A stretch of 61,806 bases of DNA, counting the filler, from Basidioascus undulatus (taxonomy: Eukaryota), in NCBI GenBank assembly GCA_000826855.1. It is 5 parts of 5 records of this genome, joined end to end, with 100 filler letters (N's around TTAATTAATTAA, not from the genome) between each part and the next. Parts side by side here need not be neighbours in the genome. Positions count along the whole stretch, not along the records: positions 1 to 12,309 come from JTLS01000924.1; 4 more parts are not named here. One strand, 5' to 3'. The translations under genes were made by a program, and so were the position numbers. Under the pieces are notes generated by a model that worked only from the letters and a program-made list of their open reading frames with translations, ran no database searches and had not been told where the DNA came from. Shown here piece after piece: positions 1 to 49,555 of this stretch (the stretch's first letter is position 1; each line of letters opens with the position of its first letter).

Positions 1-112
1 GGGTACGTCGTCCTTCCCCCTTCCCCCCCTCCCCTCCCCTTTCCCCTTTCCCCTGTCCTCTTCCCCTCACCCTCTCCCCGTCCCCCACGTCTTAAAACTC
101 CGGTGTACCGAG

Positions 113-332
113 CAGTCGCCGGCGTCGTCGGCAACCCCGGCGAGACGATCATGGTGCGGATGCAGAATGACTATGCGAAGCCTGCCGCCGAGCGGCTGGG
201 TTACCGGAACGGGCTGCAGGGTCTGTGGCGGATGACCAGGGATGAGGGCCTACGCAGCTGGACGCGCGGCATGGGTCCCAATGTGCTCAGGAGCGTGTTG
301 ATGAATTCGAGCCAGATTCCGGCTTACGATTG
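113..332 (+). CDS. DIC1: Internal exon of a mitochondrial carrier, dicarboxylate carrier (DIC1/SLC25A10-like). Upstream exons lie off-contig and downstream exons were not found.
   Basis: Peptide AVAGVVGNPGETIMVRMQND...YRNGLQGLWRMTRDEGLRSWTRGMGPNVLRSVLMNSSQIPAYDW matches the second carrier repeat of DIC/OGC/UCP carriers. It is flanked by an intron from GTACGT at 3 to AG at ~112-115 and by a GTGAGT donor at 333. Confidence 0.75.
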
Positions 333-368
333 GTGAGTCCTCTATGGAGGAAAGGGGGACGGGGATAG

Positions 369-1691
369 GAAGATAGGATCCTGAGGGAGCATAAATTCTG
401 CAATGTATTTAGGGTCAACGATCGGAATACACAGTTTATCATTGGGAGGGTTATTGGGGAGGGGGACCAGGGGGCGGAGGAAATGTGCTGTGCGCCCCAC
501 TTGCCTCCCTCCCACCGTCCGACAAGCTTAACATTCGTCCTGCGCCCACAGTCCGCGTCATCCTCTTCCGCCTGTTCAACCGCATCGAGACCTGGGAGCT
601 CCTCTCTTCCTCACTGGGCCCCCTCAAATACTCGACCTTCACGCCCGCCTCGTACGAGGCCGTCCTCGTCCGCGCCTCCCGCGCGGGGACGCCGCTCTAC
701 TCCCCGGCATACATCATCCCCGCCCCCTCCTTCGGGTACTGTTCGAACGCGTCGAACCACCTGCGCCTCCTGTCCCTCCTCATGTCCACTTCCCTCCCCT
801 CTACCCTCGCCGCCCAGACACACCTTCAAGACGCCATCGCCCTCCTCCGCGCGTACCCCTCCCTCGGGGACTTTACCGCGCTCCAGGTCCTCCTCGATCT
901 GAACATGACGCCCTTTGTTAATCTGCCGGAGAACGAGTACGTCGTTTGCGGGCCGGGGAGCCGCGCGTGCCTGGATAAGATGTTTGGCCCGCGCGTGCGG
1001 GTGGTGGAGCTGCAGGCGATGCGGTGGTTGGAGCGCACGCAGGGGGAGCACTGGGCGCGGGTTGGGGTGTCCGACATCCCCTGCGTTGCGGAGGGGCGGA
1101 GGAGGGGAGTGACCCTCGTGGATATCGAGCATGCCTTGTGCGAGGCGGAGAAGTACGCGCGCGTCGCGCACCCGTCCCTCAAGTCCTCCTCCTCCAAAAC
1201 CCAAATCAAGGGGGGGACTTTCCGACCCTCCCGCGCGCCCCTCACGGCGCACGCCCCACCCTCCTGGCCCCCCGTCGACCCCCTCGCGCGCGCTGGCGCG
1301 CCCCCGGAGCCCGAGGGAGACCCGCAGGACCCGGCGTACGAGGTCGAACGCATCGTGGATCAGCGAGGGGAGGAGGCGGGGAGGGAGTATAGAGTGAGGT
1401 GGGTGGGCTATGGGCCGAAGGAGGACACGGGAGGGCGAGCGGGAGCTGGGGGAGAGCGCGGGGGAGGTGGTAAGGGAGTGGAGGGAGTGGAAGGACGGGT
1501 TGGAGAGGCGGGTGGAGGAGATTAAGAGGGGCGCGAGGAGGGAGAAGGGGAAGGAGAAGGGGGGGAGGAGGGCGATGAGGGAGAGGAGGAGGTCCACCCC
1601 TGCCCCGGCGCCGACGCAGCCGGCGGTTTCGACGCGCTCGAGTAGGAGGGAGGCGAGAAGCCCCACGGGGAAGTGGGCGTCGGGGCTGTAG
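369..1691 (+). CDS. aGPT-PPlase1 / 5-hmdU DNA kinase helical-domain protein fused to a C-terminal chromodomain. It is 5'-incomplete and has an apparent 2-bp frameshift at ~1429.
   Basis: Exon 369-489 (EDRILREHKFCNVFRVNDRNTQFIIGRVI..EEMC) joins through a GT-AG intron 490-551 to FRVILFRLFNRIETWELL...LYSPAYIIPAP...NHLRLL...LGDFTALQVLLDL...VVCGPGSRACLDKMFG...DIEHALCEAEKYAR. This is followed by YEVERIVDQR..EYRVRWVGYGPKEDT[W]EGERELG..EVVREW (chromodomain). Restoring 2 nt rebuilds DTWE and leads to the stop at 1691. Confidence 0.75.
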
Positions 1692-2308
1692 ACTCGGTTT
1701 CGTAGACTGTATCGGGTTGAAGATGATGGAAGGACAGACGCTGCTCTTATCCTGGGGACGTTGCTTTCGCTTTGGGCGTGTTGCTTTCGCATTAGGGTCG
1801 CAGGCTTGTCTGCAGTACTTGCAAAAATGCCGTAGACTGCTCGATATGCGCTATCTCGTTGTGAGGTGGATGGGACGCTGTGGAGTGTTTGAGGACGGGA
1901 CGCAGCCTGCAAGACACGACGCCGCGAAGGCTGTAAAGGACTCCCGGCCTTCGTCGCAGAAGATGAACAGAGACAGAGATCTCTGCATCAGCATCTGTTA
2001 ACATGAACAACTTGCCATGACAGTATTAATGCATTGATTTTCACTGCAGCGACCCTGAAGTGTTAGCTTGCCTGCGTTGATTTCTTTGACACGCGCCCCT
2101 TGCCTGCCCGCCCTCGCCGAGCTTGCGCCCCGACGCGCTTTTCCTCTTGCTCGCCTCGCCCTTGCTGCTGGCTCATCATCCACCTTCCTTGCCGCGTACC
2201 CTCCCCATCCACACCGGCGCACCCATCCATCCGCGACCTCTTTCTACGCATCTCCCTTTTTCTTCTAGTTCGTGTTATCATCGCCCCCGCACCCCCCACG
2301 CCCCAGCC

Positions 2309-5300
2309 ATGAGCGTCGACGCTAGCACCCTCCTTGCCAACTCGCTCTCGCCGGGTGCGTTTGCCTTTATTCCTCATCTCGAGTCCGGTGTGGTCTCTTA
2401 CACTTGCGGTTGGGATCGACAGACGCCGCCATCCGCGCGTCGGCGACGCAGCAGCTCGAGCAGGCGAGCAATGACAACTTCGTGCGTCTCCTCGCATCTT
2501 CCCTCCTTTCCCCCACCCTCCTTTCGTTTGAGATGGACCCAGAGAAGGAGGAAGCTGAATCTGCTACATAATTCGTACATAGCCCGGCTACGTCCTCACG
2601 CTCGCGCAAGAACTCGCAAACGACGGACAGCAGCCGCATATCCGTCAAGCGTCCGGCATCGCGCTCAAGAACGCCCTCTCCGCCAAGGTGAGCCCTCAAT
2701 CCCTTCTACACCTCTTTCCTCCAGCCAGCTAACACTGTCCTCCTATACAGGACGCCGCCCGGCAAGCCGCGCAAGCCGAGCGGTGGCTGACGCTTGACGC
2801 CGGCGCGCGCTCGCAGATCAAGTCGGCCACGCTCGCGACGCTCTCGACCAAGGCCGTCGGCAACGCCGCCGCCCAGGTCGTCGCCGCCGTCGCCACGATT
2901 GAGCTCCCCGTCGACCAGTGGCCCGAGCTCATCCCCGGCTTGCTCGCCAACGTCGCCGACGCCGCGGACGAGGCGAAGCGCATCTACACCCTCATGGCGA
3001 TTGGCTTTGTGTGCGAGAGTGTCGTACGTCTGCGTTTCTCTTCGTCTGGGAGCTGCAGAGGACAGGAAAAGGGTGGAGGAAGGAAGAGATGATGGTGTAC
3101 AGGTCGTGAATGCTAATGTGGTGCGGGACTGAACAGTCTCCGGCGGCGCTGCAGGCTCGGTCAAACGAGATCTTGACAGCCGTCGTGCAGGGTGCGCGGA
3201 AGGAGGAGCCCTCGGCGGAGGTCCAGCATGCGGCCATCACCGCGCTGCTGAACTCGCTCGAGTTTGTGCGGGAGAACTTTGAGCGCGAGGTGCGTCTATC
3301 CCCCTCAACTAGTCCTTAACGCCGCCCACTCAACGCTGAACGGGTTGTGTGGATTTGTGCAGGGCGAGCGGAACTACATCATGCAGGTCGTGTGCGAGGC
3401 GACGCAGTCGGCGTTGACGGAGGTCCAGATCGGCGCATTCAAGTGTCTCGTCAAGATCATGCAACTCTACTACGACAAGATGGGCTTCTACATGGAGCGC
3501 GCGCTGTTCGGCCTCACCGTCCTCGGCATGCGCCACCAGGAGGAGGGCGTCGCGCTCCAGGCGATCGAGTTCTGGAGCACCGTCTGCGACGAGGAGATCG
3601 AGCTCGCTATCGAGGCTGCTGACGTGCGTCGTTTCTCCTCCTCTCCGGGGTTGGAATGGGAGAAAAGGAGAATGAGAGTATGGATCGCTGATGGCTGATC
3701 GTTGTATGGCTTGTGTTTTGATCAGGCTGCAGAGTACGGCGAGCCGCCCGAGCGTGAGTCCAAGAACTTCGCCAAGGTCGCGCTGCCCGAGATCCTACCC
3801 GTGCTGCTGCAGCTGCTGGCGCAGCAGGACGAGGACGCGACGGACGACGAGTGGACGGTCTCGATGGCGGCAGGGACGTGTCTCTCGCTCCTCGCGCAGA
3901 CCGTCGGGGACGCGATCGTCCAGCCCATCATCCCCTTCGTCGAGTCGCACATCCGCTCCGCGGACTGGCACCAGCGAGAGGCGGCTGTGATGGCGTTCGG
4001 GTCCATCCTCGACGGGCCGGACGCGCGCGTGCTCGCCCCTCTCGTCGCGCAAGCTTTGCCGACGCTCATCGAGATGATGCGCGACCCGCACGTGCACGTG
4101 AAGGACACGACGGCGTGGACGCTCGGGCGGATCTCGGACCTCCTCGTGCAGACTATCAAGCCCGACGTGCACTTGCACGAGCTCGTCTCTGCGCTCGTTG
4201 CGGGACTGGACGACAGCCCCAAGATCACGGGAAACTGCTGCTGGAGCTTGATGAACCTCGCGGAGCAGCTGCCGGGCCAGGAGGACGCCGAGGGAAAGAT
4301 CCAGAGCACCCCGCTCAGCCCGTACTTTGAGGGGATCATCACCGCGCTCATGCGCGTCACCGAGCGGTGCGTGCGCCTTCCTCCCTCCTCCCTTCCCTCC
4401 CCGGGGCCTTCCTTGCCGCATGTGGCTGATGCGGGATGCGGGATAGGGGCACGAACGAGAACAACTCGCGCACGTCGGCGTACGAGGCCATCTCGACGCT
4501 CGTGATGCATGCGCCGCAGGACGCGCTCGAGACCGTCTCGAAGCTCACCGTCGCCGTGCTCGACCGGATGGAGACGCTCTTGGGCATGCAGAACCAACTC
4601 CTCGGCGCAGACGACCACGCTAACTGGAACGAGCTCCAGAGCAACCTGTGCTCGGTGCTTACCGTGCGTCGTTTCCCCCTCTTCCCCTTCCCCTTCTCTT
4701 CCCTTCTCTCCCCTGTTCTCCCCTTCTGTCGGAGATCGAAATCGCCCTCGTCCCTTGGCCTTGGCTTGGCTTGTTCGTAGCTGGTGCTAATTGGGAGGGT
4801 TCGGCGCCCGCAGTCTCTGATCCGCCACCTCAACCGCGACATCCGCCCGCTTGCGGACAGGATCATGACTATTCTGCTTCGCCTCATCCAGTCTGCGGGC
4901 AAGCACTCGACCGTCCTCGAGGACGCGTTCCTCGCTGTCGGCGCCCTCACTTCCGGTACGCTTGCTTCTCTTCTCTTTGCTGCCTTGCCGCAGCTGTTGA
5001 CGTCCGCCCTACCCCGCCCCGCAGCGCTCGAGAGCGACTTCCACCCGTACCTCGAGGCGTTCCTCCCCTTCCTGTACGAGGCGCTCAAGGCGACGGAGGA
5101 GTACGCGCTGTGCTCGATCGCCGTCGGGCTGATTGGGGACGTCTGCCGCGCGCTCGGCGAGGCGTGCGGCCCCTACTGCAACTCGTTCATGAACGTCCTC
5201 CTCGAGAACCTCGCGAGCCCCGTCATCCACCGCTCCGTCAAGCCCCCCATCCTCTCCTGCTTCGGCGACATCGCACTCGCGATTGGCGGACAGTTCGAGC

Positions 5301-37097: not shown

Positions 37098-37197
37098 NNN
37101 NNNNNNNNNNNNNNNNNNNNNNNNNNNNNNNNNNNNNNNNNTTAATTAATTAANNNNNNNNNNNNNNNNNNNNNNNNNNNNNNNNNNNNNNNNNNNN
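37098..37197. other. Artificial contig-joining spacer
   Basis: N44-TTAATTAATTAA-N44. Confidence 0.97.
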
Positions 37198-49455: not shown

Positions 49456-49555
49456 NNNNNNNNNNNNNNNNNNNNNNNNNNNNNNNNNNNNNNNNNNNNT
49501 TAATTAATTAANNNNNNNNNNNNNNNNNNNNNNNNNNNNNNNNNNNNNNNNNNNN
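49456..49555. other. Artificial contig-joining spacer
   Basis: N44-TTAATTAATTAA-N44. Confidence 0.97.

Follow-up and report, generated by a model that had tools for sequence, protein, structure and literature searches.

Positions 369–1691 of the Basidioascus undulatus DNA analyzed here (the window: 61,806 nucleotides (nt), five parts of assembly GCA_000826855.1 joined end to end, the first from JTLS01000924.1) carry one copy of a host nuclear gene on the + strand. This gene joins a helical domain that is also encoded in phage base-hypermodification gene sets, Pfam HMUDK_hel (PF18723, formerly aGPT-Pplase clade 1), to a chromodomain. In the reading that we hold with moderate confidence, 369–1691 is a basidiomycete nuclear gene of a family combining HMUDK_hel with a CDY/Clr4/HP1-type chromodomain; its catalytic core is intact, its 5′ exon or exons lie outside the window, its chromodomain has been cut, and intact members of the family would act on 5-substituted pyrimidines at heterochromatin.

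The + strand frame beginning at 369 translates as EDRILREHKFCNVFRVNDRNTQFII.. and, once a predicted intron is removed, continues as FRVILFRLFNRIETWELL.. through to ..VDIEHALCEAEKYARVAHP. Its match to HMUDK_hel is far above chance level: 369–488 correspond to profile positions 31–70 (47 bits, E 2.9e-12) and 554–1183 to positions 72–280 of 281 (233.4 bits, E 4.4e-69), the curated cut-off of PF18723 being 25 bits. Profile position 71 is unmatched because its codon is the one split by the intron. The intron is predicted from the restored frame, the splice signals and the continuity of the profile, with RNA contigs leaving 369–578 uncovered. With 490–551 spliced out, every motif listed in the first-pass annotation of this DNA is found at its place and in the order given there, and the proposed assignment to HMUDK_hel agrees with the Pfam scores. 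The features of the catalytic part, all on the + strand, are as follows.

369–489, exon encoding HMUDK_hel positions 31–70 (EDRIL..KFCNVFRVNDRNTQF..), from Pfam and alignment to homologues
369–440, D.IL...KFCNVFR..DR.TQFII motif
490–551, predicted 62-nt GT..AG intron with a CTTAAC branch-like site at 526–531, from the restored frame and profile continuity from 70 to 72
552–1183, exon part encoding HMUDK_hel positions 72–280 (Pfam, 233.4 bits)
552–580, FRVILFRLFN motif
695–712, LYSPAY motif
863–886, LGDFTALQ motif, helix-hairpin-helix (HhH)-like
950–961, GPGS motif
1121–1156, family-invariant D.EH.LCE..KY motif, here DIEHALCEAEKY
1184–1333, linker rich in Pro/Ser/Ala

The full domain (positions 1–281) is not encoded in the window, which holds only positions 31–280. 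Intact homologues carry about 50–100 more N-terminal residues, including ..DTF..F..ER...RR.AG.P.PWT, ahead of the ED that matches 369; this N-terminus and profile positions 1–30 are missing from the window copy, in which a TAG at 366–368 shuts the frame immediately ahead of 369 and no ATG opens it. Across 43 aligned rows, the window among them, 18 columns are invariant (R, F, T, Y, A, L, P, G, F, Q, GxG, F, D, C-E..K-Y). Columns counted as strongly conserved when conservation among the other rows reached at least 85%; the window departs from 3 of 54 such columns, and the other 19 fungal rows from 2–13 of 68–76. Judged from these alignments, the visible catalytic core is without decay. The gene product matched no NCBIfam family, and a 458-codon open frame on the opposite strand (614–1987, −) matched no family and is probably a by-product of the local 65–70% G+C.

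The chromodomain that follows is interrupted. Pfam Chromo (PF00385, cut-off 25.1 bits) matches 1337–1429 over positions 1–32 of 53 with 27.6 bits. A C-terminal profile built from 18 fungal homologues, run against the three forward frames of 1290–1700, aligns its positions 2–34 in the frame of the catalytic domain (43.8 bits) and its positions 36–65 in the +1 frame (14.8 bits, nt 1431–1520). Profile position 35, the Trp of ..DTWE.., is W in 17 of 18 homologues and lost in the window. As this position is lost and the two halves lie in different frames, we place a one-base deletion at about 1429, behind the second strand of the chromodomain. The resulting layout, again on the + strand, is given below.

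1334–1429, first half of the chromodomain, with the cage aromatics Y (of AYEV), W and Y (of RWVGY) all present, from Pfam and the family profile
1334–1354, AYEVERI; 1391–1411, RVRWVGY; 1418–1429, KEDT
1429–1431, one-base deletion: the T of a conserved TGG (Trp) is gone and the frame shifts by +1, the DNA reading ..GAGGACACG-GGAGGGCGAG..
1431–1520, second half of the chromodomain and the next helix (EGERELGESAGEVVREWREWK..), in the +1 frame, from the family profile
1523–1525, TAA stop of the frame that bears the catalytic domain, leaving the product, as it stands, a tail of about 31 Gly-rich residues
1689–1691, TAG stop of the +1 frame

The first-pass annotation had described a chromodomain with an aromatic cage. 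The domain type and the three cage residues, which precede the break and occupy positions that hold an aromatic residue in all 18 fungal homologues, bear this out; the third strand with the core Trp and the C-terminal helix are no longer in one frame with the first half, and the core Trp itself is lost. Taken alone, the second half gave no Pfam or BLASTP signal, being too short to score. The annotated span fared similarly: both domains lie inside 369–1691, but 369 follows a stop and lacks a start codon, and 1691 is the stop of the other frame.

To read both ends of the gene against independent sequence, we aligned contigs of three public sequencing runs to positions 1–3000 of the window: X1 (DNA, 2025), X2 (DNA, 2014) and X3, which is labelled ‘DNA?’. 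We treat X3 as similar to complementary DNA because its contig skips three GT..AG introns of the importin-beta gene (2353–2422, 2481–2583 and 2685–2749). Contig depth is not used here as a measure for ranking expression, and the contigs do not fix transcript strand or extent. At the deletion site, neither X1 nor X2 contigs show an insertion or deletion relative to the window. The chromodomain is disabled by a genuine one-base deletion, and the product as sequenced would be without a foldable reader domain. The frameshift thus makes the chromatin targeting that the first-pass annotation had proposed doubtful for this copy, to judge from its sequence; the gene has either been disabled recently or encodes the enzyme minus its chromatin anchor.

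The opposite view, that the gene is fully intact and working, with upstream exons just outside the window behind an intron ending at 368 and a deletion that is an artefact or private to one cultured strain, seems to us unlikely. It draws on a catalytic core conserved as in the best fungal members, on the RNA-type cover (an X3 contig spans 579–1368 with 0 differences to the window), on 366–368 forming a normal acceptor (..TAG followed by G) with a CTGAG branch-like site, noted by eye, in the 30 letters before 346 in X1, and on the still recognizable sequence after the frameshift, from which any lesion must be young. Yet the two DNA assemblies that agree with the window at about 1429 come from different studies (2014 and 2025) and differ at 4 letters in 346–3000, the site is not a long homopolymer, and RNA contigs leave 1369–1665 uncovered, so that they lend no support to a corrected message.

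At its 5′ side the gene runs into what is most likely an assembly chimera, with 1–345 wrongly joined to the contig through a short, shared low-complexity string. The elements concerned, and a further contig near the 3′ end, are these.

1–345, + strand, mitochondrial-carrier exon at about 95–333 (Pfam Mito_carr PF00153, E 2.6e-9) and the start of an intron, GTGAGT, at 334; not part of the gene
346–368, + strand, G/A-rich stretch whose 346–364 are common to the carrier intron, ending in the TAG of 366–368, which fits a 3′ splice site (..ATAG followed by G)
1666–1890, strand not assigned, a further RNA-type X3 contig (record 6), possibly a 3′ untranslated part

The X3 carrier contig covers 115–333 and then passes to an exon for which the window has no counterpart, a search that allowed up to 3 mismatches giving 0 matches. 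A 24.9-kb X1 contig covers 346–3000 with 4 letters differing and has other sequence before 346, likewise absent from the window; one X2 contig stops at about 364–367 and another starts at 361. The 346–364 string occurs once in the window and is imperfectly complementary to the C/T-rich 30–86. Splicing of the carrier exon to 369 was ruled out, 334–368 measuring just 35 nt and the carrier mRNA continuing elsewhere. With 1–345 most likely wrongly joined, the 5′ part of the gene would lie outside the window, and 366–368 would serve as a splice acceptor.

The same two ends can also be read as those of a decaying pseudogene, a locus broken on both sides whose RNA is residual transcription; we regard this as somewhat unlikely. 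The stop immediately ahead of 369 with no start codon, the frameshifted chromodomain and the lack of any listed homologue closer than 49% all fit such a history. Moreover, hand translation of the X1 letters before 346 joined to the window from 346 on gives GLAGD-stop-DVRWEE, which weakly resembles the ..RRLAGDxxPWTED.. of the family and, if homologous, would mean that this stretch has an in-frame TGA and is longer by about 19 bases. The resemblance, however, spans a few residues, the DNA is G-rich, and chance may account for it; the lack of closer homologues may mean only that close relatives are unsequenced. Furthermore, a change at just 3 of 54 strongly conserved columns and an ordinary branch length are unexpected for an old pseudogene.

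That the gene belongs to the fungal nuclear genome and is not contamination follows from (i) its neighbors, which are fungal housekeeping genes with introns confirmed by spliced contigs, (ii) its membership in a fungal clade, (iii) the recurrence of the same one-polypeptide fusion in other fungi, and (iv) the lack of any retroelement domain nearby. A Pfam scan of the 126 open reading frames (ORFs) of at least 150 residues in the window identified importin-beta, Mus7/MMS22, a Mot1-like gene with DUF3535 and SNF2, 6-phosphofructo-2-kinase (6PF2K), PEMT, PHM7 and Snf7, and no transposase, reverse transcriptase or integrase. The G+C content is 55–73% throughout. The argument of the first-pass annotation for a host gene rather than phage contamination is therefore sustained, and the origin it had named as a possible objection, a chromodomain from a retroelement or a separate transcript, was checked and is at odds with the lack of retroelement domains nearby and with the one-polypeptide fusion in 16 of 120 listed homologues. 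Bacterial or phage contamination, or accidental read-through of a retroelement chromodomain, can be regarded as refuted: the domain is bacterial or phage elsewhere (331 phage records match) and chromodomains do occur on chromoviral integrases, but in two DNA assemblies this piece runs on without a break into spliced fungal genes, and it needs a spliceosomal-type intron and encodes a conserved two-domain polypeptide whose chromodomain is closest to those of CDY, Clr4, MPP8 and HP1.

Elsewhere in the window, 12310–12409, 24709–24808, 37098–37197 and 49456–49555 each hold a pair of 44-N runs 12 bases apart; their spacing of about 12.39 kb makes them look like masking and not biology.

The domain architecture is not new. 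It is present, unnamed, in many Basidiomycota proteins of public databases, and the family is uncharacterized. In a search of a 90%-cluster protein collection, 8,000 candidates were scored and 203 proteins reached E <= 0.001; of the 120 homologues listed, 16 have PF18723 and PF00385 on a single polypeptide, and the named ones are all Agaricomycetes, from the genera Amylocystis, Ganoderma, Trametes, Obba, Phanerochaete, Epithele, Amylostereum, Punctularia, Cyclocybe and Lyophyllum. This basidiomycete ‘Chromo domain-containing protein’ family (for example in Amylocystis lapponica, Ganoderma sinense, Trametes, Obba rivulosa, Phanerochaete sordida, Punctularia, Cyclocybe and Lyophyllum) shares with the window gene both domains, their order, the motifs and the clade, and differs from it in that the window copy is without the N-terminal approximately 90 residues, which lie outside the window, and has its chromodomain split by the deletion. 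The best identity to any listed homologue is about 49–50%, so that no close orthologue is on record. In the ESM Atlas, three Basidiomycota clusters (57, 139 and 72 members) contain both domains. A profile search of 1.84 billion representatives gave 1,717 proteins at E <= 1e-30; as the profile kept chromodomain columns, the larger counts include chromodomain-only matches. Of its best 150, we scanned 28 for architecture, hand-picked for unusual length and thus not a random sample.

HMUDK_hel + Chromo, 12 of 28 (two chromodomain stretches in three of them; a fungal Zn2Cys6 cluster as well in one)
HMUDK_hel alone, 9 of 28
HMUDK_hel + MazG/MazG_C, 3 of 28
thymidylate kinase + HMUDK_hel, 2 of 28
NADAR + HMUDK_hel + N6_N4 DNA methylase, 1 of 28
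HMUDK_hel + MT-A70, 1 of 28

The less usual forms are the NADAR–methylase protein P0229, the MT-A70 fusion P0248, P0225 with HMUDK_hel, Zn2Cys6 and Chromo, and the double-chromodomain proteins P0135, P0154 and P0168.

A tree was built from 45 rows, of which 23 are bacterial, 2 phage, 19 fungal and one the window. The 20 fungal rows including the window form a single clade (SH-aLRT, the approximate likelihood ratio test, 99) nested among the bacterial homologues; it groups with four bacterial rows of actinobacterial type, an Amycolatopsis protein among them (support 97). Of the two phage rows, both on long branches, one joins this group too, and the root is unsure. The window falls in a clade with sequences of Polyporales/Russulales type; a homologue search with the Mus7-like ORF gave no match at E <= 1e-20. 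The end branch of the window, 0.78, is inside the fungal range of 0.10–1.05. The tree makes the fungal family look like the result of one ancient transfer from bacteria followed by chromodomain fusion. Iyer, Zhang, Burroughs and Aravind are said to have named these domains in 2013 (Nucleic Acids Res 41:7635) and to have mentioned basidiomycete members. Among the papers accessible to us, we found none on the fungal chromodomain fusion, nor any testing a PF18723 protein alone.

The fold was examined on an AlphaFold model of the fungal homologue P0001, built with an alignment of 43 rows, and not on the window's own product. The model has a mean predicted local distance difference test (pLDDT) value of 88.8 and a predicted template modelling (pTM) score of 0.87, with the helical domain at about 47–337 and the chromodomain at 377–443. 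Structural alignment with VIA-align placed the queuosine-nucleotide glycosylase QNG1/DUF2419 (7ugk, 7u07) nearest, at Z 9.7 and 9.4 with 226–242 residues aligned, followed by the phage glycinyltransferase PUGT (8z2m) at Z 9.3 with 218 aligned and a root-mean-square deviation (rmsd) of 4.0; ten or more HhH glycosylases, among them Mag1, AlkA, AGOG, EndoIII, NTHL1, OGG1, MutY and ROS1, scored Z 5–7.5 and chromodomains Z 7–8. The model thus supports an HhH-glycosylase-like fold for the helical domain, as the first-pass annotation had suggested, the enzymes matched all being HhH-type base flippers. The likeness to classical HhH glycosylases is at the level of fold alone (Z 5–7.5), the gene product having no Pfam HhH-GPD match. 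In a Foldseek search of the PDB, no catalytic-domain match reached E <= 0.001 and chromodomains alone were confident; sequence searches of the PDB, with a single sequence and with a profile, likewise matched chromodomains and nothing else. QNG1, although the best structural match to the P0001 model, shares 12% identity with it at an rmsd of 5.6–5.7, acts on a free modified nucleotide and is without a chromodomain.

The candidate active site lies in the last long helix, where all 43 rows share C-E..K-Y, a motif that two phage clade-1 proteins also retain. The enzymes of clade 2, the sister family (ADDT/AADT, PF18724: PaMx11 gp46, which is PUGT, 8z2m; M6 gp51; ViI gp247), use a Cys to attack C6 of phosphorylated 5-hydroxymethyldeoxyuridine (5-hmdU), this Cys and a nearby Glu both being essential (PMC8989533). 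For PUGT, one structural report names C247 with E243/T244 (PMC11472151), and in a second structure a metal is bound by E222/T223 (PMC13458397). The spacing from E to C in the fungal E-H-x-L-C equals that of PUGT E243/C247, and the fungal Cys may, by this analogy, be the equivalent of C247. ADDT/AADT enzymes resemble the present family in their HhH-like helical fold and in a C-terminal-helix Cys with an acidic residue four positions earlier; they differ in showing no detectable sequence relationship to it and in needing a 5-hmdU DNA kinase, of which none was seen in the window. The reader domain has closer counterparts: the chromodomains of CDYL2/CDY1, Clr4, MPP8, Chp1 and HP1 share the fold and the cage with the family, with sequence matches down to E 1e-9 for the family profile, and the window's half chromodomain matches the CDYL2, CLR4 and MPP8 chains with E down to 2.8e-5. 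In those chromodomains, unlike in the window, the third strand and helix are in frame.

Outside fungi, the domain is found in phages and bacteria. The 331 matching phage records are all below 60% identity (25–33% among those listed). In Brevibacterium phage LuckyBarnes, gp38 comes after two glycosyltransferases and a gene of thymidylate-synthase-like type, and in the ViI-like phage phiEa2809 the clade-1 gene follows a MazG-like gene. The annotated coding sequence of the latter (L001/L108, 92390–93298, 302 residues) looks too short, as its HMUDK_hel match extends to 93499 in a 431-codon frame. Phage clade-1 proteins share with the window PF18723, the motif ..(Q/E)(N/H)..CE..KY..R and the setting of base-hypermodification gene sets; unlike the window gene, they have neither chromodomain nor introns, and their role is likewise only predicted.

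In bacteria, contigs taken at one genome per species hold at least 569 stretches that encode relatives. Nearest to the fungal proteins among all others, with identities of about 35–42%, are stand-alone PF18723 proteins (annotated as ‘nucleotide kinase domain-containing protein’ or ‘putative DNA base hypermodification protein’) that sit in mobile cassettes, none of whose partner genes is in the fungal window. Among the 80 bacterial loci kept, the partners are the following.

MazG_C (MazG/MazG_C), 60 of 80 loci
M78 peptidase, 48 of 80
an unnamed protein of about 300 residues, 48–51 of 80
Xre-type helix-turn-helix (HTH) protein, 45 of 80
4′-phosphopantetheinyl transferase, 29 of 80
dCTP-deaminase-like protein, 20 of 80
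Nmad2, 16 of 80
thymidylate-synthase-like protein, 11 of 80
thymidylate kinase, 10 of 80
any one or more of these, 75 of 80

A recurring gene order (5815–10415 in L024; also L033, L046, L036, L080 and others) is CapH-like HTH, CapP-like M78 peptidase, the protein of about 300 residues, HMUDK_hel, MazG+MazG_C and 4′-phosphopantetheinyl transferase, with variants carrying thymidylate kinase, thymidylate-synthase-like, dCTP-deaminase-like, Nmad2 or TIR genes. The HTH protein and peptidase of the cassette resemble CapH and CapP of defense systems; PADLOC gave no match for the PF18723 proteins themselves, and a 2026 paper lists aGPT-Pplase among predicted, unvalidated defense domains (PMC13092281). 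This widespread bacterial cassette looks like an undescribed nucleotide-modification or defense module. From the context of these loci, the ancestors of the fungal gene would have resided in nucleotide-modifying, probably mobile, cassettes, of which the fungal version appears, by comparison of the gene sets, to have retained HMUDK_hel only, while acquiring a chromatin reader.

By analogy with its relatives, the protein may write or process a non-canonical base, as the first-pass annotation had proposed, and the most likely role for the family would be that of a heterochromatin-targeted enzyme acting on modified DNA pyrimidines. That role agrees with the type of fold, with the residues that do not vary, with the conservation of the aromatic cage and with the DNA-methylase fusions; a DNA-directed context is given by the N6_N4 DNA methylase, MT-A70 and Zn_clus fusions and by the phage cassettes with a thymidylate-synthase-like gene and glycosyltransferases. 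In an intact member, the chromodomain would dock to heterochromatin of the H3K9me/H3K27me type, and the helical HhH-like domain would flip out of the DNA a pyrimidine substituted at position 5, such as the 5-hydroxymethylcytosine (5hmC) or 5-hydroxymethyluracil (5hmU) that TET/JBP oxygenases, reported in some fungi, make. The invariant Cys-Glu..Lys-Tyr helix would then act on the flipped base with one of two outcomes: a group might be added at C5, as by the phage amino-acid:DNA transferases, or the base might be removed, as by QNG1 and DNA glycosylases. The base J pathway of kinetoplastids, in which a JBP oxygenase and a glucosyltransferase make a chromatin-linked hypermodified pyrimidine after replication (PMC13229309), is an analogy in the way of working only, its enzymes being unrelated to the HMUDK_hel family.

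Several observations weigh against the interpretation that we favor. X1 and X2 may be of the same strain, and the deletion could then be private to it. With the 5′ end outside view, an intact core is not equivalent to an intact gene. The 126 ORFs of the window include no partner gene, be it TET/JBP or a candidate kinase, for which the first-pass annotation had proposed to search the genome, or a hydroxymethylase or MazG-type gene. The structural match is weak, as Z values of 9–10 for a helical model are under the tool's caution line of about 13, and Foldseek gave PUGT at E 0.45 only. Comparison of PF18723 with ADDT (PF18724) by hhalign gave a probability of 0.1–0.2, and there was no Pfam cross-match at E up to 1. 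The closest bacterial relatives adjoin enzymes of free nucleotides, namely MazG/MazG_C, dCTP-deaminase-like proteins and thymidylate kinase, a setting in which the ancestral substrate may have been a nucleotide and not DNA. Finally, the accessible parts of PMC5889632 and PMC8989533 describe no PF18723 member with demonstrated activity. The former, from 2018, states that five ViI genes suffice, which of them are necessary being then not known; the latter, from 2021, finds the ViI kinase and the clade-2 enzyme necessary and, in the text available, reports no such need for the clade-1 protein.

This silence on the clade-1 protein in the ViI pathway would also suit a helical domain that is not an enzyme but a module binding DNA or a modified base, the fungal protein then serving as an adaptor between some feature of the DNA and methylated histones. 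Pfam's present name for PF18723, the helical domain of 5-hmdU DNA kinase, points the same way, as do the fusions of the domain to thymidylate-kinase-like and MazG_C (predicted kinase) domains and the entry of SP10 gp186 as a fusion of kinase and glycosylase-like domains in Table 3 of PMC5889632. We nevertheless consider a non-enzymatic role quite unlikely: one helix holds a Cys, a Glu, a Lys and a Tyr that do not vary, whether the member is fungal, bacterial or from a phage, a pattern more often seen in active sites; every one of the closest folds belongs to an enzyme; and most bacterial and all fungal members are without a kinase domain.

Returning to the enzymatic reading, a bolder form of it, which we offer as a long shot, is that the heterochromatin of many mushroom-forming fungi carries an undetected hypermodified pyrimidine: 5-methylcytosine (5mC) or T oxidized by TET/JBP would be derivatized or excised by a chromodomain-guided, Cys-dependent HhH-type enzyme, in the service of transposon control or of self/non-self marking, and the species of the window would be a natural mutant that has newly lost the targeting module. 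Such a system, if real, would parallel in a eukaryote the thymidine hypermodification of phages. We found no report of a modified base in these fungi.

For the window itself, these results describe a real but damaged gene at a contig start that is probably chimeric, with an architecture already present in public databases. Tractable species with intact genes are found in Phanerochaete, Trametes, Ganoderma and Cyclocybe. If the intact members act on DNA, fungi would possess a chromatin-directed base chemistry beyond 5mC and its oxidized forms, borrowed from bacterial and phage hypermodification systems.

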